From IMG/VR virus record IMGVR_UViG_3300045988_069061: 64,000 bases of DNA, one strand, 5' to 3'. The notes beneath the pieces were generated by a model that was given only the letters and a program-made list of their open reading frames with translations, was not told the origin of the DNA and searched no databases. The DNA comes from a virus. Numbering within the stretch: the stretch's first letter is position 1; each line of letters begins with the position of its first letter. Both the position numbers and the translations under genes were made by a program. Shown here piece after piece: positions 7,701-40,722 of the stretch.

Positions 7701-9007
7701 CTAATAGTTCGTGCAGTACCCCAATAAGCTGTTACTATATTAGTAGTTCCATTAAATGACGTTCCATTGATAGTTCTTTCAGTCTATAGTTTAGTTGCTG
7801 TTGCCGCATTGCCTGTAATAGAAACTCCAAGAGTTGTACTACAAGCTGTTGGTGTACCTGCATTTAGGTATATAGGAAGGGTTGCAGAACCTTTTGTAGC
7901 CGTTCCAATCTTTAAAACTATTCCAGTATAGTTAGCACTATCTACAATAGTTTTCCATGATTTTGTATTCAAAATTGAGTCTGTACTATTTCTCCAATAC
8001 AAACTTCCAGAATACATAGAGTAGAACTACATATATCTGGTACTTCCACTTCCAGTATTAAACTATACTAGGTGTCCAGAAGCTCCTGTATACTTTACAT
8101 TCCAGCTACCACATAAATTATTATTACTTGCTAATTCGGTAGCTGTAGGAACAGAACTTGCTATGAACTAATCTCCTCTAGCTCTAAAGAATGAAGTTTC
8201 ATGTAACCCGTCTAATAAGTCTGAATTAAGGTTAGTAACCACAGTTGTGCTAGTTACCTTTAATGGAGAGGTACCTGTAGCAATAGTAGATATTAACTGA
8301 GTTCCTGTTATAGCAGCTTTTACTATTAGAGGTCCAGTCATAGTATCTCCAGTTACATTCACATATCTCTCATCGGATTCAGTTTTAGTATAGTAATTCT
8401 CAGCTAGTGCGACTGATTTACCATCTAATTTTAAAACCCCTTTACTTATAAACAGACCTACCGTTCCACCCCAAGGACTAGTTGCTGTAGGATACGGAAG
8501 TATGCAGATAGAGCCATTTCCATCTCCTCCAGTATTATGCTGTCCTATAGAAGGGTCGTAGGTATTCCTAGATGCACCATTTTTATACCATTTCAGTATA
8601 GTAGTATAGTCACTAGTATCATTCTAGTTCTATATAATACTAGCATTACTAACAAATCTAACACTAGTAGAAAAAGTCTTTGCTCCTGTAATACTTTGAG
8701 TAGTGTCAAGAGTTACAAACTTATTATCTAAAATTGAATAAAACTAAGTCTTACTCACTCTTCTAATAAAGGTATCAGAAGTATTTCTTACATATACGGA
8801 ACCAATATCTGTTAACGCTTCATCAGAAATAGCTGAGTTAAAATAAGTAGCGTAAATATGCTAGCTGGCGTTTCGTTGAACTAGGGTGCTGGCTTTGCTT
8901 GAAGCAGAGTACTCTAAGTCTCCTCCGTTGCTAAGAAGGACTTGTGTAGCGCTTCCTTGATATGTGGTTCCTATAAGTTTTGCATATCCATCTTTAACTT
9001 TTATCAT
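4739..9007 (-). CDS. very long tail fibre protein (~1420 aa) with phage tail-fibre repeat motifs; many in-frame TAG codons
   Basis: ORF-track fragments 8168..8362, 7784..8017, 6749..7159, 5486..5857 and 4982..5317 are all in one frame, and each ends at TAG. N-terminus from ATG ~9005-9007 reads MIKVKDGYAKLIGTTYQGSATQVLLSNGGDLEYS... Motifs present: GDTMTGPL, ITGNAATATKL, QSITGAKTF. Frame tracing ends at TAA ~4739-41. Confidence 0.5.
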
Positions 9008-10281
9008 ATTATCCTCTTAAATTTAAATGTATAAGTGTAAGCAGCGCCTATGCCAGCACTTGCACCTATCTATAATTTTAAAACTTCAGAACTTTGCATA
9101 ACAGTTCTTAAGTAAATTGTTTTTCCATAAGCATGACCAGAACGGTGAAGGATAATTTCATCGGTGTCTGTATCATTAGTACCATCTCTATACCAACTCA
9201 TTACACCAGAATTATAGCAATGCCACATAGCTCCTGTATTATCGTTAGCACTAACTTGTACCTATACTATATAAGTTCCATTAGCAGGAAGGTTAGTAGA
9301 TGTTATTCCCGTATCCATCCATGCTTGTGTAACATTTAACGATTTAGTAATGGTTGTGAGATTGTTAGATAATTCTTCTGTTTTTAACATAAAGTCGGAT
9401 ACAGCTTTATGTCCTCCTCCACCCAACAATACATAAGAGTCAGAAGAATTAGTCTTTTTATAACCTGCTGCTGTAACATTAACTGTGAATGTCTTAGCCC
9501 CAGTTATAGTTTGTGCAGTATTTAATGTAACGTAATTAGCTAATGATTGATGTTCTGTAAGAACTGGTTTTCCACCTGAGTACAATTTATTAGCCCATAG
9601 ACTACCTGTACTAGGCTGAGCATATATTGTTGTAGTTACATAAACTTGCTAAGTAACACTAGCACCTAAATCAGCAGTGGTACTTGTGTTAGTATAACCT
9701 AAAGCAAGAGGTCTATAATTTGAGGTAGTGGTAGCAGACTACAATACTTTCTAATCAGTATTCATGTCTGTATACCATCTAACCCAAGTTTTCCAAGCAG
9801 AAGAATCATGGTACCTAAACCATATCAGACCATTAGAAGTAATTAACTTCTAATAACGATAACCACTAGCATTTCGACCAACATATAATTCATATGCATC
9901 TACTCCACTAGGTTTGTTCGTTGTGGTATTACCACCGCCAGCATAGTACCATCTCCCTTCGTCTAAGTAATCATCTAGATCTTGATCAGTTAATTGGGTA
10001 TAAATGAATGTCACAGCCGCAGCCGCAGGTATGGACCAGGTGCCATCTTCCCTTAAAAATCTAACATTTGTTGCAGTATATGAAGGGACAGGCACCAATC
10101 CGTTATAACCTCCACTTCCACTAGAAGTATGTTTTTTAAATACTGAGTAAGTAGTATCTGTCCCTTTAAACTTTATCCCTCTAGTAAAGATATTTAAGCC
10201 CTTTAAGTCAAAGGTTACATCATTATTATTGGGAGCAGTCGTTAAAGCTGCTGCCGTAGTAGGATTGTATGCTATCTTCAT
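9004..10281 (-). CDS. tail fibre protein (~425 aa); TAG read-through
   Basis: Fragments 9850..10281 and 9262..9585 are in the same frame and joined through TAG codons. The TITGAKTF fibre motif is present. TGA at 9004-06 overlaps the ATG of the downstream fibre gene (ATGA). Confidence 0.5.
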
Positions 10282-12576: not shown

Positions 12577-13671
12577 TTAAATAAATTATTAGGTATTTGG
12601 TAGTCTACATAAGATTTTAGTGTAGAATCTACAAAATCTAAGTCGGCTATCATATTCTGAACTTCCTTTTTGGTGATAAAATTGTTGTTATTGTTTTCCA
12701 CAATTTGACCTACAATTCTATCTATTTCTTCTTTACTATAAACTCCTAGATTAGTTCTAGCTAGCGTCTTCTCAGATTCTGTTTTAAACTCGCCTAAATA
12801 ATTTTCTTTACATAAATGAGTTTTATATTTTGGTTTTGGACATTCTCTAATAAGCTAATTATCACATCCGAATCCCGTATCTACACTTCCTATAACTGAA
12901 TCTGGATTTTTATGTTTCGGAGTTTTACAGCTAAGGTTGATTTCAGGAGGTGGAGGGACTGGCTTATCGTTATGTTCAAATCCCGTACTTATGGTAGTCA
13001 TCACAGAATCCCCTTCTATAAAATCAATATGATTTTCAGGAGGTGGAGGAACTGGCTTAGTATCATAGCCAAGCTTTATAGTATTAAGTAATGATTTAGA
13101 AGGAAGTAGCTAGGGCTTTTCATTCCCTAGCTATATTTTATCCTTTTCTAAATTCTCATTCATTTAACGTAATCTTATCTGGATACCCAGAAGTATAATC
13201 ATATTTTATAACATCTTCAACTGTCTTAAGCTCTTTTATAGCTAATAGATGTTGAGTTGTGTTTACATAACATTTCCCAGCGTACACCTCTAGCTAAGCT
13301 AGAAATTCTTTTACCTTGTCTACTGGTAATTCGATTATTTCACTACCAAGAACCAAAGACATATTACCAGTACTACAATTAGCTAAATTTTGTAGTCCGA
13401 CTCTAGTAGCTTTATCTAACCAATACTCTTTGTCGTTATAATAGAACGAATCAACGTTAGATGATTTATCATATGCTTTAATAGCTGCTTCTAAAACTGG
13501 AAGCATTAATTTAAAATAACATACTCCATCTTTTCGCTCAAATAACTCCTTCCAAACACTCAAGGGGAGCCTTAACAGCTCCTCGTGAGTGAGTAAGGAT
13601 TTCAAAGAGTCATCCTTATTAATTACATAATAACGATTATCGTGACTTATTTGCATGAAATTATCAGCCAT
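12577..13671 (-). CDS. hypothetical protein with two KPVPPPPE proline-rich repeats; TAG read-through
   Basis: Fragment 13294..13671 (MADNFMQISHDNRYYVINKDD...) ends at TAG. The downstream frame is open to ~12577. Confidence 0.4.
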
Positions 13672-16600
13672 TCTTAGAATAATTAAATTTAGTAAACGGT
13701 ACTCCTTGATGTTTAGTTAATCTCCAAGCATTGTTATATTGAACAGTATTCCAGTAAGATGGGTCATTATAACTACCAGTAACCCATTCATTAGAGTATG
13801 TATAACCTCCAGAACCTCCGTCATATTGCTAAGTTCTTTGATAAGAATAGTTGTTAGCAGCTGACGAGTTAATAGAAGTAGTAATATTATTTACTCCAGC
13901 ATTATCTCCAGAACCTACTATATTAGACCATACAGATGGGAACTAATTAGTAGCTCTAGAATAAGCAATAGAGAATATAGGAGTAGTTAATACTCCACCT
14001 CCATTAGAAACTGAGGTACTAATAGGCTATCTTACTGTATCTCCAGTATTGAAATTACTTCCAGAGACACTATAACCTCTATAGTAAATAATTCTAGAGA
14101 ACTCAGCTACTGAAGGAGCATACCAATTACCTTTCTTATAAGCTGAATTTAGAGTTTCTCCATCCTTTACAGACGGTTCATATACCTACATACTATAGAA
14201 GTATGGATATAATAGACAGCTCATAATATCTGTTCCAGAAGCATTGGTCCATACTGTCTGAATAGCTTCACATAGATTATTTAAGTTAGACTTAGATTCT
14301 ATGTAGTATTCCCATGAAGTACTACCTCCTGAAGAAACTTGTTTTCTGCTAATATAAGGCTTACAAGCTGAGTTATTATACAAAATAGGAAGTAACTTAC
14401 TATTTACATGATTAATATATAATTCAGTATCAGACTTACCAGCAAATGCTGTATTTACCTGTATGTTGTAGGTAGATACATTAATATTATTAATTAAGTT
14501 AGGAGTAGCAGTACCAGAAACAGTTTCATAATTAGAAACAGACACGCTAGACAAATAGGCTTGTACCTAATACAGCTGTTGTAATATCTATTCCTGAGAA
14601 CCAGAATTTCCATCTGCACTATATCCTAAGTAGTAAGACTTTTCTTCATCAGTGTATTCCTTACCAATGATGTAAACTACTCCAGACGTATCATCACTTT
14701 CATCCTTTGCATACACTAGACCAACTAAAGTCTTAGTAGCATCAAATGAGCTAGTAAACGTACCATCAGCATATGCAAAGTCTCCAAGCTAAGGAGCCTT
14801 CCAAGCGAAGCTTACTTTAACAGTTTTTCTAATGGGAGTTCCACTATTAGCAACCTTCATACTGATAGTTACTGTAGCAGTACTACTAGATTCTTTCTTT
14901 AAAGTAATAGCACCAGTCTAATCAATTGTAGCTACATCAGTAGATACTCCTGACATAGAGTATGTAATATCTAAGTATCCATTTACAGATGGATTATATG
15001 GGTTAGTTCCCTATTTAATTTCAACATCATTACCAGAATCTACTGTAATATCAAATAGATTTTGACGAACAATAGTTCCGGATTCTCCAGCCTAGTAATA
15101 TACAGAAACTTCTCCAGCGCAACTGAAATCCAAAATTTCTGCACTTTGGAAGTGTATTCTAATCTTAGATTCAGGGTCAGAAATGTCACCAAATGTGTTA
15201 ACAAGTAACTATTTAGTAGCAAAGCTAATTGCTTTAAGAGTTGTACTTCCTGCAGTATTTACAATGTAAATATCTCCAGTTAAGTTACAAGTATTTGTAA
15301 GAATCATCTTTCTTAAAGCATCTTCTGTTATATATAAATTTGCATTTCTAATAGTTACTGACTGAAGGGCATTGCAGTTAATTAACTATTCGCAGAAATT
15401 AGCCACATCAAAACTTCCTACATTATCGCAGTCAATATATACTGTTGATAAATTATTCAATCCTTCAAATGTAATATCAGTCAATCCTGGATTATCATAG
15501 ATTCTAAATGTTTCTATAGTATCTGGAAGAATTACATTCTTTAATCTACCAGTCTGTGGGAATACTACACTCTTAGTAGTAGTCTTAGAGAAGTCTATAG
15601 TCTCTAACTTTAAGAATTTAGACAAGTCCATTTCTGTAGGAAGTGTCATATTTCTAAGAGTTAAGCTCTCTAATACTGGGAATGAAGGAGTAAATAAGCT
15701 GATAGCTAAGTCCGGATAATCGCTTGGGAATAGACTAGTATAATCGTCTAACTAAGCATTATCAATTTGGAACTCAGTAGTTCTAGCAAAATCTGCATCA
15801 ATAGTAGACATCTTTAAACCTAAAATATTTAACTTCTTATATAAAGTAGTTAAGTATATACCTTGGTTAATTGCAGGATCTCCTTGATTGATTTCGGCTG
15901 TATAACTATTTCCTGTCTATGCTAAATTCTTAATTGCATCAAAGTTAGATGTCTAGAAATTAGATAGATAAAGGTTTTTACCGTTGTAATGATAAACAGG
16001 ATAGCAATCCTAATATGGTTCAAACTCCATTCTTAATCTCAGAGTATCACCACTACCTGCAGAACTTGCAGTTCTTAGTGCAATAGCTCCTAAAGAAGTC
16101 TATGCATAAGTAGAAAGGAATGCAAATCTCTTGGTCATGAACTATTTCTCACAAGCTAAGCAAGAGCCGTGGCTTTGTTCGATAGGTTCAATCTCGTTGT
16201 TACTATAATATGAAAGTACCTTAGAATTTTTAATAGCCTAAGCATTTTCATAATATATCTTAGCTGTATGGTTATATGCTACTGCTGGGAACGTTTCTTG
16301 AACATTAAAGAACACTTTATAGAAGTAATTTGATTTATCTTCCATACTGTTACTGTTCTTAAATGCAGTATTTATAACACTTGCTAAATATGTTTTTATT
16401 TCAGATTCGAAACATTGGTCAAACATATAGAAGAATACATTGTTAGCATCTCCCCAATATACTGAGTCAGCTTCTCTATAGGAAGTCTCTAGCAAATTAT
16501 AGGGCTTAGATTGAAGACCGTTGTTATCAGTTACTAAGATAGTATCTAAGTCGTCTCCAATAAGTCTAACTAGATAATCCCCCTTACCACTCTCAACAAA

Positions 16601-19600
16601 TTCTCCTTCTTCGTTTTCTTCTCTTAGTTTTCCAATAATTTGGAAATATGTATTTTTAGCTCTATTGTCAGTTCCAGATACAAACTTAATAAAAGCCTAG
16701 TGGAAAGCAATATCATTTACATCTATGTAGTTCTTAATTCCTGTAATGAAATTAGCTTTCATTGCATCTAATGCAGCAGGAATACCTAAAGCGCTACTTG
16801 TTCCAGCTAACTCGTAGATATTAGCTCTAGCCCATCCAGTAGCAGATTCATAACTTACTCCCGCACATACCCAAGTTCCGTTAATATCATCATAACGATA
16901 AATATCTCCGGACTTATGACTAGTTGGATTTAGCGTACAAGTACTAGCTGTTACAATGTACTTTTTAGTTACATCCCATCCAGAAGGACTAGTAGCACTT
17001 GTCTGAACCATGTTGTAATCATGTGTATAAACGAAGTCGTAGAACTCTCTAAACTTCTTTAAAGATTCATGTACTGATTCAGCAAATTGGAAGTATGTCT
17101 TTCCACTATCATTTTCTACTTCTTCACAACCATAATCAATATCCCAAGCTCCTCTCTAATCGTATACAACAGATTCATCTTCGATTAAAAGATTATCCCA
17201 AGGACGAAGTAAAGAATTAGTATAAGTTATAGTTGGTTGATTAGTTAGTCCATAAGTATCTTCTCCAAGTACACCAGAGGCTCTTTGAAGCGCCTACCAA
17301 GGACGTCTAAAGTTTACAGATGGGTCAGTGTTTTCACCACCTTCTAGCATTAGATATTCCGGAGTTATATCTTCGTCATATCCGCTGGAAGCATCGTCTC
17401 CTTTACCTGCTCCCCAAGTTTGGAATCCCATAAATTTGATAGACTCATCATTATCTAACAAATCTGCTAGTTCTACAGTAGAAACATCTTCTAAATCAGT
17501 TTCCCAGTAGAAGTATAGGAATGGTTCTTCATGTACAGCTTTCTATCCTCCTGAAATTAAATTTCCTCTAGATTCCTTATATGCATCATCAAATAATTTA
17601 CAAGAACCAATCTTATGAGACTGCATAGAAGAAGCAAAGTTTACTTTACCTACTAATTTAGTTATCTTATATGCAGTGGTATCTTGCTATCCATCATAAG
17701 GAGGCATTACATAGTAACCCTTCGTAGAAGAAGCATCTTCTCTAAACGTATTAGTATCTGTATCTAACTAGGAGTATGGAGTAAATGGACTCTTTATTTT
17801 TAGTCCTCCCTAATCCTTTAATTTATTCAAAGCATAGGTAACATTCCAAATTAAATATCTCATTGCAGATGAACCTTGCCCTTTTACTCGACCATGAGTT
17901 AATCTACCTCCGTATAAGTTATTAACAGCAGGGTTAGCATAGTTAACAAATAAAGTTACTGGAGATTTTTTCTATGCTGTTTCTTGCGGAGGAGTTTCAT
18001 TATCTTCACCTCCCCAAGCTCTATGTGGGAATTTAGCTCCAGTCGGGAATACATATACTAAAGTATTATATTTACTATTAGCTCTACTAAAAGAGATTTC
18101 TCCATTAGTTCCAAGAATATCATTCTTGTCGAAGAACTCTTCTTTAGAGGTCTTTTCTTTCAAGAAAGAAAGATAATTTTTCTAAACCTGATTGAAAGTA
18201 AGAACAGTACTATTATATACTCTGAATAGATAAAAATCAATATCAGCAGTTGTAGGATTAATCTACAGTGCTGCAGAAGTGAACGTATTAAGTTCTGAAT
18301 CTGTTAAAGAAATTTCTCTATCTATTACTCCATTTACATATATTCTAACTAAGTTAATGCTAGTGGTAGGAGCTACCTAATCAAAAGCACTCTAGAAGCT
18401 AGCTAGGAAGTTCGGATAATAAATATCACTCTTAGAGATAACAAAGCCTTTCTATACAGTTACTAATACATGAGTCTCTACTCCTTCTTGGAATTGAGCA
18501 TTTCTAGCATTAAATAAATCAGTATCCTCAGTATTCCAACAGAATTGAGTAGGTCTCAACTAGAAGTTTCCTATTGTAGCTATTGGTTTGCTCTCATCAC
18601 TAATGTTATAAGTTTTAAATCCTAATTCAATAGTGAAATTATTTCCTAATCCTAAACTTAGAGGTGATTTTAGTATAGGATTATCCTGTGCAGATACTTT
18701 AAATATTGTACGCCCATCTTCTTCCTACCATCCGTCTGACGATTCCAAATCTGATATTACCGTAGCCGGATTTGAACCAGTGGCATATTCGTCAGTAACA
18801 AAAATATCATTTAAGTAGCCTTCAATCTAGTCAAAGTTCTTAGAAGGAGCTATATCCTACGAATATATAAATTCTGGATTCACTGCCTCTACTCTCATAG
18901 TTTTGAAGTTGCTTGTATAGGCGGTAGTCTATCCTAAACTATTAGTAAATACAGTATAGAACTTATAGTAAGTATCATCTACTTTAATTACTAAATATTT
19001 TTCAGAATCGCTACTATTTATCTCTATATATTTTTTATACGAAGTGTCGTAGACTCCCTATTCATTGTAAGATGAAGCGCTAATAACTTCATACTTCATG
19101 ATTTCAGTAGGATTCATACTTTCAGAGTCTGGCATTTCATTCTCTAGATAAGTAGTTATAGCCATAGAGCTATTATCTGGGCTAAATACAGTTAACTCAT
19201 ATAGAGTAGCTACGCCATTGTTCGCAATACCATTACTTACTCCATTAATAGCAACGATTGTTTCTGCGCAATTATATGTATAAATAATATCTACATAAAT
19301 ATAGTCTGTATAAATAGAACTCTCAGTATTATGGACTGCCTTTACAGCTAATTGATTAAGTCCTGAGGTTAAACTAGAATAATTCAATACCCCTCCACTT
19401 GTAGAAAGTGCAGAGCCGTTATTAAATCCCTCTAAGTGATAATTGCTAGTTGTTCCTCCAGTTAAAGAGAAATTAACTAGGTTGTTACTTAAGACAACTT
19501 CCCCATTGTAATTAAGAGTGATTACTTCTGTAGTAATTGGAAGGTCTAAAGTATCTTCTACTTCAGGGTCATCTATTACCTGAGCAGTAATTTTCTTAGC

Positions 19601-20179
19601 AGACTAAGTTTTAGTAAATAACTCAGTAATATCTATCCAAGCTAGAGTATCAATTAATTCCTCTGATGATACATTAACTCCAGTAATTGCTCCAGTAGAA
19701 GAATCAATAATACACTAGTTATATTTAATATTGTTTACTCTAAATGTTCCAGATTGAGTTCCATAACTAATCTTAACATTGAAAGGTCCAATTCTATCTG
19801 TTGTTACAGAAGTAGTAGCAACGGCGTACATTGCAATACCAACCTTAACATTTCTATCAGAGTTATATTGCATCAAAAGAGAACTATTAGCCTCGGTATA
19901 GATTTTGTCAGTCTTATTGTCTAACATTACTCCATACACCATAATACCATAAGAGTACGTGGGAGGAATAACTGATACTTCAGTTTCTACCTTATCTCCA
20001 TTACTCTTAAGAAGAGTAAGGATGCTAGTAGAAGAATCATACGATGCATCTACTATATCCTATCCCTCTGTCTTCTCTATTTTTCGGCTTATGAAATCCT
20101 CAACCTCCATTCCAGAATGTCCATCCCATTCTGTTGCTAAATCTGTAATCTGATTAGGTAAATTTTCAAATTTTGCCAT
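13664..20179 (-). CDS. giant virion or tail protein (~2170 codons) with an LRR-like segment; many in-frame TAGs
   Basis: ORF-track fragments 19715..19942, 19058..19387, 17972..18163, 16697..17011, 16238..16495, 15386..15649 and 14186..14554 all share one frame (end coordinate mod 3 = 1). Hand translation from ATG ~20177-20179 (MAKFENLPNQITDLATEWDGHSGMEVEDF...) met only TAG stops until TGA at 13664-66. 15386..15649 contains an LRR-like stretch (LTDITFEGLNNLSTVYIDCDNV). An undetected TAA or TGA that would split this gene cannot be excluded by eye. Confidence 0.4.
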
Positions 20180-20409
20180 TTTTTACAAATCAATTATTTT
20201 TCCATGAATCATCTTTTAACCAAGGTCTGTCTTGTAGCCAAGTTCCGCTACCAAAACAGCTTCTAACAGCATCGTATACGGTAAGCCAGACTAACTACGA
20301 CCCTTTATATATAGCTCCAATGTTCTTTTGTACTCTTTGCTAAACTTGTTCTACAAGTTCTAGAATATCTTTTTGGACCTGTAATATTAACTTACCATTT
20401 CTATATATC

Positions 20410-20758
20410 ATAATTTAGCAAAATCTTCCTTGACTTTAGCTTTTATCTATTTTAATATGTTAAGATATTCCTTATATTCATTAATAACTTCAGAATCAGA
20501 AGTAAGATTTTCTGAATAGCTATTATATGAATTGATTAAATCAAATTCTTCATCGACTGTAAGGAATCTTCTAACTATAGCTTTTACACAATCTTTGTAA
20601 TTAGGCTGTCCATTTAATAATACCTAGATAAAACTATAGTAAGTTTTTTCTTTTATGGTATTGTCTAAATCAAGTACTTCAACACTAATTTCTTTTATAT
20701 CATAGTTATAGTAATAAGTACCGTTCCCAAGTTTTTGGATTGTCTAAGGATAAACGTC
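20410..20758 (-). CDS. small hypothetical protein overlapping the 3' end of the RT gene in another frame; candidate DGR accessory gene
   Basis: ATG ~20756-58 (MDVYPQTIQKLGNGTYYYNYDIKEISVEVLDLD...), two in-frame TAGs, ends at TGA ~20410. Its position directly after the RT gene is suggestive only. Confidence 0.3.
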
Positions 20759-21980
20759 CATTTGTATTCTATTCGGCTCTAACATAAGGTGTTATTTTAA
20801 AATTTATAGGAAATTTGTATCTAAGCAAAGAATAGTGTAATCTCCTATTCTTACTTTTAAAATAGTAGGGTTTATTGTTATACATGAAATGCACTCGAAA
20901 ATGATTGTCATAATCAATAACCTCTACAATGTGAATATATTTATTATAAAACTTAGATATGTTAACTTCTTTTCCATTCCAGTTAGAGAATTTCAATCCA
21001 GTTAACTCCTCTACCTTTCTCAGCAAGTTCTTAGAGTTGCAAAATTTCATCCATCCAAAATAAGACCTCATTCTTCTATTCAATTCATCTTTATCAATCT
21101 TATTCTATTTATATAGATTTATAAGCCTAAACATCCTCATTTTTATAGATTTTCTCAGTAGAACATGAGTATGATAGAATTTATAGCCTACGAAATCAAT
21201 ACCTCTGCTTTCTACAGGGAATATTCGATAATTAGGCTTCAACTCTAGGTTAAGAACCTGTTTCAAATATAGTTTTATAGATACTAATACATTTCTCAAA
21301 TAATTCTTGTCATTACCAAGAATCACAATATCGTCAGCATATCGAAAGTAGTACTTACATTTTAACTCCTCTTTTACCCAGTGGTCAAAATATGTCAGAT
21401 ATAAATTTGCAAAGAATTGTGATAGATAATTTCCAATAGGAACTCCCTTCGCTGAATAAATTATTTCTTTCAACAGTTTTAATAGTTTTTTATCCTTTAT
21501 CTTTCTCTATAACATTTCGTATAAAATGTCGTGAGTTATAGAAGGATAGAATTTTTTTATATCCATTTTCAAGCAATACTTTGTTTCTTCTGGATGTTTC
21601 TATAACACCTTAAACAAATCATACTCTACTTTATGAATACCTCTATTTCGTATAGAGGAATATGTTTGGTCTATAAATATACTAGTCCAAATAGGCTCCA
21701 TAATATTCATTATAGCATGGTGAGTTATTCTATCTGGATAGTATGGAAGTCTAAAGATTAATCTTTCTTTAGGTTCGTATATTATAAAGGTACTATATTC
21801 AGAGGTTTGATAAATCAAATCCCTTAACTTATCGGATAATTCCTTATTTTCTTTTAATCTATTCTTATCATGCTGCTTGATTCCACATCTAATAGACTTA
21901 TTTCTTCTGGCTTTATCGTCAGCTAGTTCGATGTTATCTTCAGCGTATACTTTCTCGTGCAAATATCCTACACGTTTCAA
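20706..21980 (-). CDS. DGR-type reverse transcriptase (~424 aa) with in-frame TAG codons
   Basis: ORF-track fragments 21600..21980, 21105..21473 and 20769..21083 are in one frame and separated only by TAG codons (cta at 21600, 21105, 20769). Motifs: ITHHAIMNIMEPIW...SSIRNRGIH (RT motifs 1-2), GVPIGNYLSQFFANLYL (QG motif), YFRYADDIVILG (YxDD). The frame ends at TAA 20706-08. Confidence 0.8.
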
Positions 21981-22120
21981 TTTTTTATATATTTCATCGG
22001 AAGCGTTCGAGAATTAACCTACTAACACCCTTCATTCAACACTACGTTATCTTTTGCCTAGAGGCAAGGATATTACTTAGCAAACTAAAAAAAAATAATA
22101 AAATGTTTCTAAATATATAA

Positions 22121-22219
22121 TAACTCGACATTGGAATTGGCATTGCTGACGTCATTGTTAGAATTGAAATAGCTGAGACCTGCATTGCTGCCATTATTCG
22201 CGTTGCTGCCTACTAGCAG
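22121..22219 (-). repeat. DGR template repeat (TR), non-coding, between the target gene and the RT gene
   Basis: A ~99-bp AT-rich copy of the GC-rich 22322-22420 segment. About 30 mismatches, all but one at plus-strand T positions, i.e. adenines in the gene-sense (minus) strand. Confidence 0.75.
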
Positions 22220-22297
22220 TACTTTTTTGCCAATCAACGGTTTTTAGAAGTAATATCCTACGATTTATCATCTAAATCGATTTTTATATTGTATATC

Positions 22298-24115
22298 TTA
22301 AGATACTCTATTCAGAGTCCTGAACCCGATAATGGAACTGGCAACGCCGACGACATTGCTAGAAGCGAAATAGCCGAGACCCGCACCGCTGCCACCATAC
22401 GCGTCGCCGCCCACCAGCAGCGTGCGAAGCGCTGTGCTGCTTGCGTTGCAGTAATGGGAATCGCAAATATAAGTAGTAGTACTTCCTCCAACAGCGGATG
22501 GAATTATTTCAGCGGTTTTACCTAAGTCAAATGCCTTAATATAACCATCCGATGCTACTTCGTATCCTGCAACGGTTTTCTCTCCAACTACGTCTGTAAA
22601 TTCCGATATGTTAGTAGTTGTATAGACAGTGTTAATCTCATTAGCAGCTGCTCTCACTATAACTACTCCGTCCAGGTTAGTCCAAATGTCTCCAAACGGA
22701 TTATCGAACCCTCTCCAGCGAGGTACTTTAAATGTATGAGTTGCTACTGTATTTGTGCCATCTTGAGCTGTACATTCTGGAATAACTAAATCTTTTACTC
22801 CAGTGAAGTTACCAAATTCATTGCAGTAACCACAAGGCGTAAGTGGATATGTTGCATTATATCCTGACCAACTTGTAGCTGCGTTAGCCCAATCTGTAAC
22901 TCCAGGTCCCAAACCCCCTTGATGATATCCATCCGCAGTTAACTCTGCATTATATGCAGCCTAAGAATTAAAATTAGCATATTCAATAACATAATTCCAG
23001 TAGAATATCCATTTGTAATATTCATAGCATAGCAATTCTGAACCAGCATTTGTTGCATATGTTCTCATAGTAGCTCTAGAAATATTAGTTCTAGGCTTTC
23101 CTAAATCACTTCTGAATATATCCTTAGTTTTTACTTCTGTAGTTAGATAATCATCGTAGTTAGCTCTATTTCCTCCACCTCTAAATGCAGTAGTAGTATT
23201 AACTACTGATACAGCTTTTGGAGTTGCAGAGACTGTGGTATCAACTGTACTTCTGTATGCATCTATTAATAGTTCAGGAATTTCTACCCATGAATCATCA
23301 ATTTTGACAGTAGAAGTTCTAACCCATCTTTTGTTTCCATCGCTGCCAGATTTTCCATAAAATTTAGGAGTATTAACTCTTACTGTTCCATCAGTTCCAT
23401 CTAAGACAGATGGAGTTTTGCCGTCTTCTTTATAAGACCAGTCATCTGGAAACAGATAGTAATTTACTACATCATTGTTTGCTACACAACCTCTATACGC
23501 TGACTGAATAGGAAGAGATTTATGCAACAAAGGATTACCTATTCTAGTAAGTTCCGGAGATGCTACTGTAACATTCCATTCTACTCCATAGGAATATAAA
23601 TCCATATTACTATTTAGCTCAGTAACCTACTTATCAAGCTTTTGTTGTGCCTTCTACAATTCTTCCCAAGCCTCATTTAGTGCTGTAAATTGCTCTTCTA
23701 GCTTAGAACTTGAATCTGCCCATTCAGCAGTACCATCTGCTGAGAAAACTAGCATCTATCCAGACGCTCCTCCAGATGGAATATGTTTATTTCCAGAAGT
23801 AGTTGGGTGTACATAATCATTAGCATTATTAGCTATAGTACTTAACTTTTCCTTCTCAGTTTTAGTATAATTGGCTTCAGAAAGTCCCTTTCCTAACTCC
23901 TTATCTACTTTGCCTTCAAGCTCACCCTTAGTAGCTAATTCACTAATATCCTAATGCTCAGTCAAATATCCACTATCATTCTGTAACTAAGAAGTTTTAG
24001 TTGGAATTGCATTAGCTTTGGCATATGTCGTATCTATAACATTTCCAGCACCATCGTAAGTAGCTTTTAAATCGTATGTGGTTTCCCCAACCTTTATAGA
24101 TTTGATTGCTGCCAT
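22298..24115 (-). CDS. DGR target gene 1: fibre or receptor-binding-like protein (~605 aa) with a C-terminal variable region; TAG read-through
   Basis: Fragments 22961..23605 and 22298..22912 are in frame and separated by TAG. Upstream translation stays open to ATG ~24113-15 (MAAIKSIKVGETTYDLKATYDGAGNVIDTTYAKANAIP...). The C-terminus (...LLVGGDAYGGSGAGLGYFASSNVVGVASSIIGFRTLNRVS) is encoded by a GC-rich island. The stop at 22298-300 is TAA. Confidence 0.6.
22322..22420 (-). repeat. DGR variable repeat VR1 at the 3' end of target gene 1
   Basis: Pairs with the TR at 22121-22219. Differences are confined to TR adenines (gene sense), the hallmark of adenine-specific mutagenic retrohoming. Confidence 0.75.
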
Positions 24116-24120
24116 ATCAT

Positions 24121-24317
24121 TGTATTATTAAAGTTTCACCAACTACATCGTGATCTATTCCCTCTATGGAAGCAGTTAGGTCCTCAACAGCCTTCTACAA
24201 TTCTGCTTTAGTAGCATAGTTCTTGAGAACTTCCTAGTCTACTCCAGAGCCTCCTCCAACAACTTTTACTGGTTTGGCAGAACTCTTAAACTGTCCTTCA
24301 ATATAAATTGTTCCCAT
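24121..24317 (-). CDS. small hypothetical protein (MGTIYIEGQFKSSAKPVKVVGGGSGVDQEVL...); in-frame TAGs
   Basis: Hand translation. Ends at TGA ~24121. Confidence 0.3.
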
Positions 24318-24329
24318 ATTGTTTAAAAT

Positions 24330-26161
24330 ATTAATTGTTCATTTTCTCCATCTACCTCTACACTAGAACCTGGCTATAAAGCGTCTATCTTTTTCTACAA
24401 TTCGGCTACGGCCTAGCTAATTAGTTCTTCTACCTCAGCTTTGGTGTAGTATCTCTCTATAAGATATTCGCTTCTAACATATCCAGTATCTTGTAAATCT
24501 TTTTCTCCATAGGTGCAATAATAAGTATCTTCTTCAGTCTTACTATTCTCAACTAGGTCATCATAATCAGCTTGTGGTAAGCATACAAGTTTTGGTACTT
24601 CTTCAGTAATAGCAACTTGCTTGCCTCCAGCAAATAGCCTGTTATCTTCTGTGGTAAGTTTAACAGAACTCTCAATAACTTGCTCAGTTCCTGTTTCCTC
24701 AGAAGGTTCTCCAGTTGTTCCCTATTGTACTTCTTTTTCTCCAATTTTCTAAATAGTAATATCAGAAGTTTCTACTGATGTAGATTTCAAAAGCTCAGTG
24801 CTAAATTCTTTAGCAGCAGCAGCCTAATCATCCTGATATTTTTTCTAGGTAACAAATATGAAATCATCATCTCCGGTTTCAGGAGAGTCTCCCCTTAAAC
24901 TTTCTTTTGTTACGTAATCTTCGGCTATCTAATCTGATAAATCAGATAATGACTATTGAGTAGCATAAGTAGACTGAGCATTTTCCTTAGTAAGAAATTT
25001 GTCATCAACCTGCTAAATAGTATAATAAGCCTTAATATCTTCTGTAGTAACGTAGTTTCCAAGTTTTTGCAAACCTTGAACTATTTCATCAATCTACTTC
25101 TTGGAGTAATAATTTGTAGCAACCCAGGACTGATATTGATTGGTAGTATGATAATTCTAATCCAAATATTCCTTAGTAATATAAACCTTTGCATCATTTG
25201 TGACGTCATATACATAGTAATATGTATCAGGCTCTACCGTCCCTTCCTCTACTAACTTTAGATACTCTTCTTCAGTTAATGTTACTAAGTTCGGAATATC
25301 CGATTCAGTAGCAATCTAATCTTCACCTATAAATAATCCTTCAGACTTAACGTCTACTACTAACTAGCCCTCTCCCTCCACTACAGGAGATTTTATCTAC
25401 CCAACAGTGATGCTTTCTAAGGAGCCATCTCCATCTACCTTAAGAGTTTTATCTAACTCGTCTTGGATAGCCTACTAATCTTCCTCATATTCTTTCTTTG
25501 TAACGAAGACAAAATCATCTCCTTCCATTCCCTCTCCTCTAAGGCTTTCTTTAGTAACGAAAATATCGTTTGTTTCTTCCTTAGTATAATACTTAGTCAG
25601 TGATAGAGCTAAAGAATCGTTAGAGACATAATTAGTAGTTAATTCTTCCAGTGTAGCATAATCTGATAGGCTAGCAATAGTGTTATCTAAGTCTGTTCTA
25701 ATCTATACTACAGTAGTATTAAGAGCCTTCTATTTTAATTGCTCTTCTATCTTTTTCCCCCATTCCGCGGATAGGTAAAACTAGTTATCGTCTAAGCTAT
25801 CCTCATATATATAATAATATGTCTCAGCATGAAGATATGGTTTACTTTCATCTATGGGCCTAAAATCGTCTGTAGTATTCTCAGACCATTCTTTATATTC
25901 AGCCTCTGTACAGGTGATTATCTAGATAGATTCATAGGATGCTTTCCATCCTTCCTTGTATTTAATCTTAGACTTATCAATCAGCATATAAATATTTCCG
26001 TTATCTATGTTAGCAACGGTCATACCTTGATAAGCATACTTCTCTGGAATAGAATAAAGTTCGTCTAAGTTATTAACGACTGTTCTATTATCGAGAGGCT
26101 TCGGAGTTTCTACGGTTAAAGCGACACCTAAGGTAGCATCACCTGTATATTTAAATGCCAT
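24330..26161 (-). CDS. repeat-containing structural protein (~610 aa) with an internal ~150-aa duplicated segment; TAG read-through
   Basis: Fragment 25922..26161 (MAFKYTGDATLGVALTVETPKPL...) ends at TAG. The downstream frame is open. Segments such as YVTKESLRGE..DDF.FVT.KEY.DDQ recur, matched by DNA-level repeats near 24810-24920 and 25440-25560. Confidence 0.4.
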
Positions 26162-40633: not shown

Positions 40634-40650
40634 AACTATTAATTTTGGCG

Positions 40651-40722
40651 TTGCCCTACTAGGATTCGAACCCAGACTAAATGATTTAGAGTCATCTGTG
40701 CTGACCATTACACCATAGGGCA
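40651..40722 (-). tRNA. amber suppressor tRNA, anticodon CTA, Gln-tRNA-like (U1-A72)
   Basis: Minus-strand sense tgcccta-tg-gtgt-aatggtca-gcac-a-gatga-CTCTAAA-tcatt-tagt-ctggg-ttcgaat-cctag-tagggca-a: a full 72-nt cloverleaf. The anticodon loop c-t-CTA-a-a reads UAG. Confidence 0.85.

Follow-up and report, generated by a model that had tools for sequence, protein, structure and literature searches.

The 64,000-nt stretch of viral DNA analysed here (IMG/VR virus record IMGVR_UViG_3300045988_069061; hereafter the window, with positions counted from its first nucleotide) almost certainly carries a diversity-generating retroelement (DGR) with two target genes. Its host genome would be that of an amber-recoded crAss-like gut phage of ~180-190 kb, probably of the Zeta group, and its mechanism would resemble that of Bordetella phage BPP-1. 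A sequence-only reading of the window had proposed a DGR next to a fibre-like gene, and that interpretation was borne out by adenine-specific mismatches between the repeats, by a reverse transcriptase (RT) nearest to Brt, and by hypervariability of adenine columns among related genomes. The same reading had omitted the recoding of TAG, a remote variable repeat, and the absence of Avd. The features of the element are as follows.

22121-22219, minus strand: non-coding template repeat (TR); most of its 31 adenines fall in AAY and AGC 'codons'
22322-22420, minus strand: first variable repeat (VR1), inside target gene 1, coding for residues ~565-597 (LLVGGDAYGGSGAGLGYFASSNVVGVASSIIGF)
22298-24115, minus strand: target gene 1, 605 aa with six in-frame TAG (=Gln) codons, a tail-fibre/receptor-binding protein
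20706-21980, minus strand: DGR RT, 424 aa, TTG start, four in-frame TAG codons
21981-22120, minus strand: spacer between TR and RT, 140 nt
49978-50076, plus strand: second variable repeat (VR2), in frame in target gene 2, coding for ALVGGGAYCGGHAGLGFFNSGHDVGNASSSVGM
49633-50193, plus strand: target gene 2, within the tRNA-rich block of the plus strand; 186-aa product of unknown function
40650-40722, minus strand: suppressor tRNA with anticodon CUA, detected with ARAGORN

Template repeat, tail-fibre target and TAG recoding

TR and VR1 aligned locally without gaps over 99 bp, both on the minus strand and offset by 201 bp, exactly where the sequence-only reading had placed them. The number of differences was 23, lower than the ~30 estimated earlier. 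As that reading had seen, all but one lay at adenines of TR in the gene sense: these 22 comprised 16 A>G, 4 A>T and 2 A>C changes, and the remaining difference was G>A. Tabulated by template base, mismatches were found at 22 of the 31 adenines and at 1 of the 68 other bases (Fisher p=7e-14). VR1 also forms the GC-rich island noted before (0.64 GC at 22350-22449 versus ~0.3-0.4 in the surroundings). It ends 8 codons before the stop of target gene 1, and TR sits in the 317-nt gap between this gene and the RT gene. With adenines masked, a 27-nt core of the repeat occurred three times in the window, against no occurrence expected by chance.

The open reading frames (ORFs) of the RT (424 aa) and target 1 (605 aa) both need TAG as a sense codon; under the standard code, the RT and 'fibre' genes break into several short ORFs. 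At conserved positions of target 1, TAG codons of the window corresponded to Gln in all relatives compared (46/46, 29/29 and 57/57) and never to a stop. The near-terminal TAG of the RT is GAA in two relatives (L016 and L073), where the frame runs on to the same TAA. Because TAG reads as Gln, the coordinates previously given for these two ORFs are correct, but under TAG=Gln only. When TAG was treated as sense, the minus-strand block at ~1-36,000 became a series of long ORFs, including portal, large terminase and tail fibres. Summed over the table of TAG-readthrough ORFs, 249 in-frame TAGs were present in 11,537 codons of this block, and none was found in the long plus-strand ORFs at 42-64 kb. 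The stop codon is recoded to Gln in one gene block. The genome is thus split by code into a TAG-bearing structural/late minus block (1-36000) and a TAG-free, tRNA-rich plus block (42000-64000); the tRNA-CUA is located between the two, and 13 more tRNA genes lie at 46.9-60.7 kb.

Target 1 matched PHROG 5302 ('tail protein'), and sequence searches of Pfam, NCBIfam and PDB gave no match. Its fold was modelled on a 440-aa homologue, P0126, with the fragments of the window itself included in the alignment. The model reached a predicted local distance difference test score (pLDDT) of 94.5 and a predicted template modelling score of 0.94. It assigns to the C-terminal ~440 aa of target 1 the predicted fold of DGR variable proteins, of the C-type-lectin/formylglycine-generating-enzyme type, in line with the C-type-lectin-like fold anticipated for the C-terminus of the target.

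Second target and variation among related genomes

The third copy of the masked core, at 50005-50031 on the plus strand, revealed VR2. Over columns 5-98, TR and VR2 differed at 21 positions, 20 of which were adenines (p=5e-12). Beyond VR2, target gene 2 continues for 38 codons to its stop, and the two target proteins are alike in the VR segment only (32-38 residues). Target 2 belongs to PHROG 11581 (unknown function; E=6e-17), and sequence searches of Pfam, NCBIfam and PDB returned no match for it. The family of small phage proteins to which it belongs comprised 323 clusters at 50% identity, which conserve an LVGGxAxxGxxxGLGxF...VG motif. Target 2 has no N-terminal hydrophobic stretch and no TAG codon, where ~4 would be expected at the density of the late block (probability of none ~0.02, by our own arithmetic).

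Diversification was assessed by comparison between genomes rather than within one population, the comparison standing in for the read pile-up by which the sequence-only reading had proposed to look for hypervariability at VR positions opposite TR adenines. In IMG/VR, 80 loci encoded relatives of target 1, mostly on contigs of 180-193 kb (178-193 kb for the contigs of relatives overall), and 40 related loci carried the target 2 gene. Among 31 genomes with near-identical TRs, the TR was identical in 23, including genomes whose target proteins were just ~80% identical, and VR1 was unique in every one (31/31). The variation of VR1 was concentrated, as predicted, at TR-adenine columns, with a mean entropy of 1.27 bits versus 0.12 bits elsewhere. 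When lineages with diverged TRs were included, 69 TR/VR1 pairs contained 1487 mismatches at adenines and 73 at other bases. VR2 behaved similarly, with 40 of 41 sequences unique and entropies of 1.33 bits at adenine columns and 0.18 bits at the rest.

Rare variants of TR at bases other than adenine recurred in the VR of the same genome, namely T at columns 17, 29, 44 and 92 (L015, L017 and L020) and C at column 7 (L023). VR2 likewise carried the non-adenine TR variants of its own genome (L102, L105 and L110). Such co-occurrence indicates a directional transfer of information from TR into both VRs. Together, the mirrored variants and the unique VRs imply that the element has been active in this lineage. 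Complete relatives contained exactly three copies of the repeat core. Given these three copies, the variation of VR2 and the mirrored TR variants, one TR therefore serves two targets, and the comparisons identify the repeat in the 186-aa ORF, 28 kb away and on the opposite strand, as a second diversified target.

Some TR copies carried VR-like changes at former adenines: L010 had G at columns 5, 8, 12 and 16, L014 had G at columns 30 and 38, and L073 had G/T changes over columns 67-88. In these three loci, mutagenised cDNA seems on occasion to have been copied back into TR.

Reverse transcriptase, mechanism and alternative explanations

The RT matched Pfam RVT_1 (E=1e-19) and PHROG 1423 (E=4e-113). 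Its best solved structure was PDB 8ub7_A (155.8 bits, E=1.6e-44), which tblastn showed to be Brt of phage BPP-1. Matches to group II intron RTs and to two chains deposited as 'retron-type' reached only ~1e-15, and those to named retron RTs ~1e-5. The RT also scored far under every cutoff of the NCBIfam models for group II, retron and defence-associated RTs, with 113.7 bits for TIGR04416 (group II RT/maturase; cutoff 300) and 69.1 bits for the retron St85 RT model (cutoff 235). Regarding the motifs named in the sequence-only reading, YADD is present, but no QG motif was found; motif 4 there reads IGNYLSQ, a GxxxSQ signature of the kind cited as typical of DGR RTs (PMC12386605, PMC11054128). On these search scores and motifs, rather than on an RT tree, the enzyme was classed as a DGR-type RT, as had been suggested. 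It extends ~95 aa past the region aligned with Brt, and this C-terminal extension is basic (isoelectric point 9.9) and is kept in relatives and in the RTs of other crAss-like phages.

The spacer between TR and RT presumably forms the 3' portion of the DGR RNA. Within it lie a conserved hairpin (CCTTGCC-YCTW-GGCAAAAG), the blocks U(G/A)GUAG and UCGAA, and a closing helix that is AU-rich and invariant, and the blocks are kept across lineages with diverged TRs. Two invariant segments, TTATATATTT just 3' of TR and AAATATATAA just 5' of the RT start, were kept in 15 of 15 diverse sequences and could pair to close the spacer RNA. The Rfam family RT-17 (RF03020) aligned full-length at 21983-22071 with 28.7 bits, below its gathering threshold of 40.4 (E=0.0014 in a 401-nt search), and RT-18 (RF03021) scored 23.9 bits, below its threshold of 41.3; relatives scored no better in a larger search. 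The families share with the spacer the CCUUGCCUC-UGGCAAAA hairpin, the GUAG and UCGAA blocks, and the placement right upstream of the RT start. The likeness to RT-17 is a resemblance and not family membership.

By the BPP-1 paradigm, the non-coding TR and the conserved spacer would be transcribed, and the RT would copy the TR RNA into cDNA while misreading template adenines. The cDNA would then replace the two homologous repeats, VR1 in the fibre C-terminus beside the cassette and VR2 in the 186-aa protein. Reading through the TAG codons of the RT and target 1 presumably requires the suppressor tRNA-CUA, and because both genes need this phage tRNA, the RT and the tail fibre are probably made late in infection.

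Several points weigh against a working DGR with two targets. The probably late timing of the RT is drawn from codon usage alone. The AlphaFold model of target 2, for which the input alignment was shallow and limited to sequences of at least 85% identity, was unusable (pLDDT 44.5). RNAalifold returned the hairpin and the AU closing helix of the spacer, with no compensatory changes or covariation within it. No element resembling the initiation of mutagenic homing (IMH) site, and no conserved hairpin, was found in common between the 3' flanks of VR1 and VR2. The sole consistent difference between VR and TR at their 3' ends was GGG in VR versus GAG in TR at column 94. For VR1 there is a stem of 5 bp (ACTCT-NNNN-AGAGT) in coding sequence, and for VR2 no conserved stem. 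Cassettes of the BPP-1 type have an Avd (or HRDC) accessory protein, which is not universal among DGRs. Here no Avd gene was found, there being no ORF between VR1, TR and RT and no Pfam or NCBIfam match for the neighbouring ORF. Avd is likewise absent from most of the DGRs that Zeta crAss-like phages carry (PMC12386605), and the basic C-terminal extension of the RT may cover its role. Finally, the activity of the copy in this genome is judged from relatives, and the RTs of some relatives are frameshifted or truncated.

These last two points, together with the missing Avd, could also be read to mean that the cassette is a fossil, active in ancestors but non-functional in this genome, with inherited VR differences. 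The RT gene is frameshifted, truncated or mostly deleted in relatives L003, L015, L044, L060, L072 and L079, which keep TR and VR; the remaining products are 315 aa in L003, 393 aa in L015, 73 aa in L044 and only residues 321-424 in L079. Broken RTs beside kept repeats indicate that the cassette is decaying in part of the population. We consider a fossil unlikely for the window itself, where the RT ORF is intact under TAG=Gln and 98% identical to many intact relatives, and where TR equals the majority TR. Moreover, genomes with 94-97% identical target proteins all differ in VR1 and VR2, which implies very recent turnover, and the window has one non-adenine mismatch each in VR1 and VR2 (columns 5-98), which implies little decay since the last homing event.

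It is less probable still, and in our judgement very improbable, that VR2 is not a real target but a copy of VR1 left in an unrelated gene by past gene conversion or recombination. The restriction of the similarity between the two proteins to the VR segment and the lack of a common 3' flanking element would fit such a copy. VR2 is, however, unlike its own genome's VR1, and just one of its non-adenine positions (columns 5-98) departs from TR. Neither its near-universal uniqueness, with variation at adenine columns, nor its agreement with the non-adenine TR variants of its own genome is expected of an old copy, and the VR-like motif is kept across the 323-cluster family of small proteins.

A group II intron or retron RT beside an unrelated duplication decayed by AT-biased mutation is already refuted: the best NCBIfam hits are indeed those models and some homologues are annotated 'retron-type' in GenBank, but those hits lie far under the family cutoffs and Brt is the far stronger match, an Rfam search of 20300-24400, with a limit as loose as E<=1, returned neither group II intron RNA nor retron RNA, and AT-biased decay can neither limit differences to one base of one copy nor yield 31 different VRs beside an invariant TR.

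Two neighbouring genes are also of note. The minus-strand ORF at 20408-20785, which overlaps the last RT codons, encodes a 125-aa protein of PHROG 11557 (unknown function). It was considered as a candidate Avd and rejected, being acidic (isoelectric point 4.8), without a family match, and kept where the RT is deleted. It was syntenic with the RT in 69 of 71 relatives having an RT match, even where the RT was lost, and is probably an unrelated gene of the structural module rather than an accessory factor. Directly downstream of the cassette, among tail-fibre-like genes (145-2493 and 9004-10281), lies a 2171-aa ORF (13664-20179, minus strand) with 41 in-frame TAGs.

Adenine context bias and relation to known systems

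In natural TR/VR pairs, the VR base opposite a TR adenine depended on the 3' neighbour of that adenine. Tallied over the TR columns of the window and of loci L001-L118, the VR bases were distributed as follows.

Adenine followed by G: VR ~97% G; in the 69-pair set, G 497, A 20, T 3, C 0
Adenine followed by G, at three independent four-fold-degenerate third positions (GCA, GGA, GTA): G 106, A 3, T 0, C 0
Adenine followed by C: G 172, A 101, T 8, C 3
Adenine followed by T (second A of AAT): A 443, C 140, G 128, T 125
Adenine followed by A (first A of AAY): A 244, G 301, T 296, C 120

Selection for glycine at the protein level was considered as the only explanation for the surplus of A>G changes at AG sites, but amino-acid selection is ruled out because the synonymous third positions show the same bias. 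Conversion at AG sites occurred in the same transfer events as adjacent non-adenine markers (columns 29/30 and 44/45 in L017, L020 and their VR2s). A context effect is known in principle, since reconstitution of the BPP-1 system has shown the error spectrum of Brt to be governed by the nucleotide 3' of the template adenine, with misincorporation of C predominating (PMC12875486). The near-determinism at AG and the differing outcome at AC point to a strong context bias of the mutagenic step, for which protein-level selection gives no explanation. The RT clade may read adenines before G almost deterministically as G, and a part of the TR adenines would then be 'silent'. Such near-deterministic A-to-G conversion at AG sites seems not to have been described previously.

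DGRs are known from crAss-like phages of the alpha, delta, epsilon and Zeta groups (PMC7290462, PMC11054128, PMC12386605), and those of the Zeta group were reported in 2025 from 18 of 43 genomes (PMC12386605). The Zeta phages resemble the phage of the window in their genomes of ~182-189 kb, in having a suppressor tRNA (CTA), and in RT genes that contain suppressed amber codons. They also share the GxxxSQ motif, long RTs with variable C-termini (up to 414 aa, compared with 424 aa here), and a tail-fibre target with a C-terminal C-type lectin domain; Avd was present only in Lera and ct1yV3. Since amber-recoded Zeta crAss-like DGRs have been described, the cassette is of a kind already known. Placement in the Zeta group is probable from the likeness of the RT and tail protein to those of crAss-like phages, the 178-193 kb contigs of relatives, and the features in Table 1 of that study (PMC12386605). 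It reported several TR-VR pairs for Lera and ct1yV3 only, and its text names no second target at a distance for the amber group; the remote second target seems not to have been described before.

Among other crAss-like DGRs, those of crAssphage LMMB and of further alpha/delta phages (PMC7290462; cr7_1 and cr85_1) have RTs 56-58% identical to that of the window over 93-94% of the length, including most of the C-terminal extension. Their tail proteins are 54-59% identical over the receptor-binding region, and their genomes measure ~98-104 kb. No DNA match to the cassette of at least 85% was found with megablast in the phage collection. Compared with the BPP-1 DGR (mtd-avd-TR-brt), the window shares the order of target with VR, TR and RT, the adenine-specific transfer from TR to VR, an RT homologous to Brt, and a spacer of ~140 nt between TR and RT. 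It differs in having neither Avd nor a recognisable GC-rich IMH or downstream hairpin common to the VRs, in an RT that is longer by ~95 aa, in a remote target besides the adjacent one, and in TAG=Gln genes; its error spectrum by sequence context also differs (PMC12875486). Target 1 was only 17% identical in sequence to TaqVP of Thermus aquaticus (PDB 5vf4), a cellular protein and not a phage fibre.

Metagenome surveys have sought VRs only beside the RT, a design that could not detect remote targets (Roux et al. 2021, PMC8144416). Elements of this type are missed by standard gene callers and DGR finders because TAG fragments the RT and the target and the search for VRs stays beside the RT.

Overall, the window contributes a further DGR, well supported and apparently active, to those known from large recoded gut phages of the crAss-like type. 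The natural TR/VR pairs at synonymous sites provide a selection-free read-out of the adenine context bias, which complements the BPP-1 reconstitution data of 2026. The translation of the RT is tied to the suppressor tRNA of the phage, which hints that mutagenic homing is scheduled for the late stage of infection. The target 2 family gains its first functional handle, as ligand-binding, diversified proteins. A more speculative idea, which we hold to be possible but doubtful, is that target 2 is a non-virion, hypervariable intracellular binder from the presumably early TAG-free block, for example of a target in host defence or takeover. If this were true, a single TAG-gated, late-made RT would prepare variants of a non-structural protein, as well as of the adsorption apparatus, for the infection cycle that follows.

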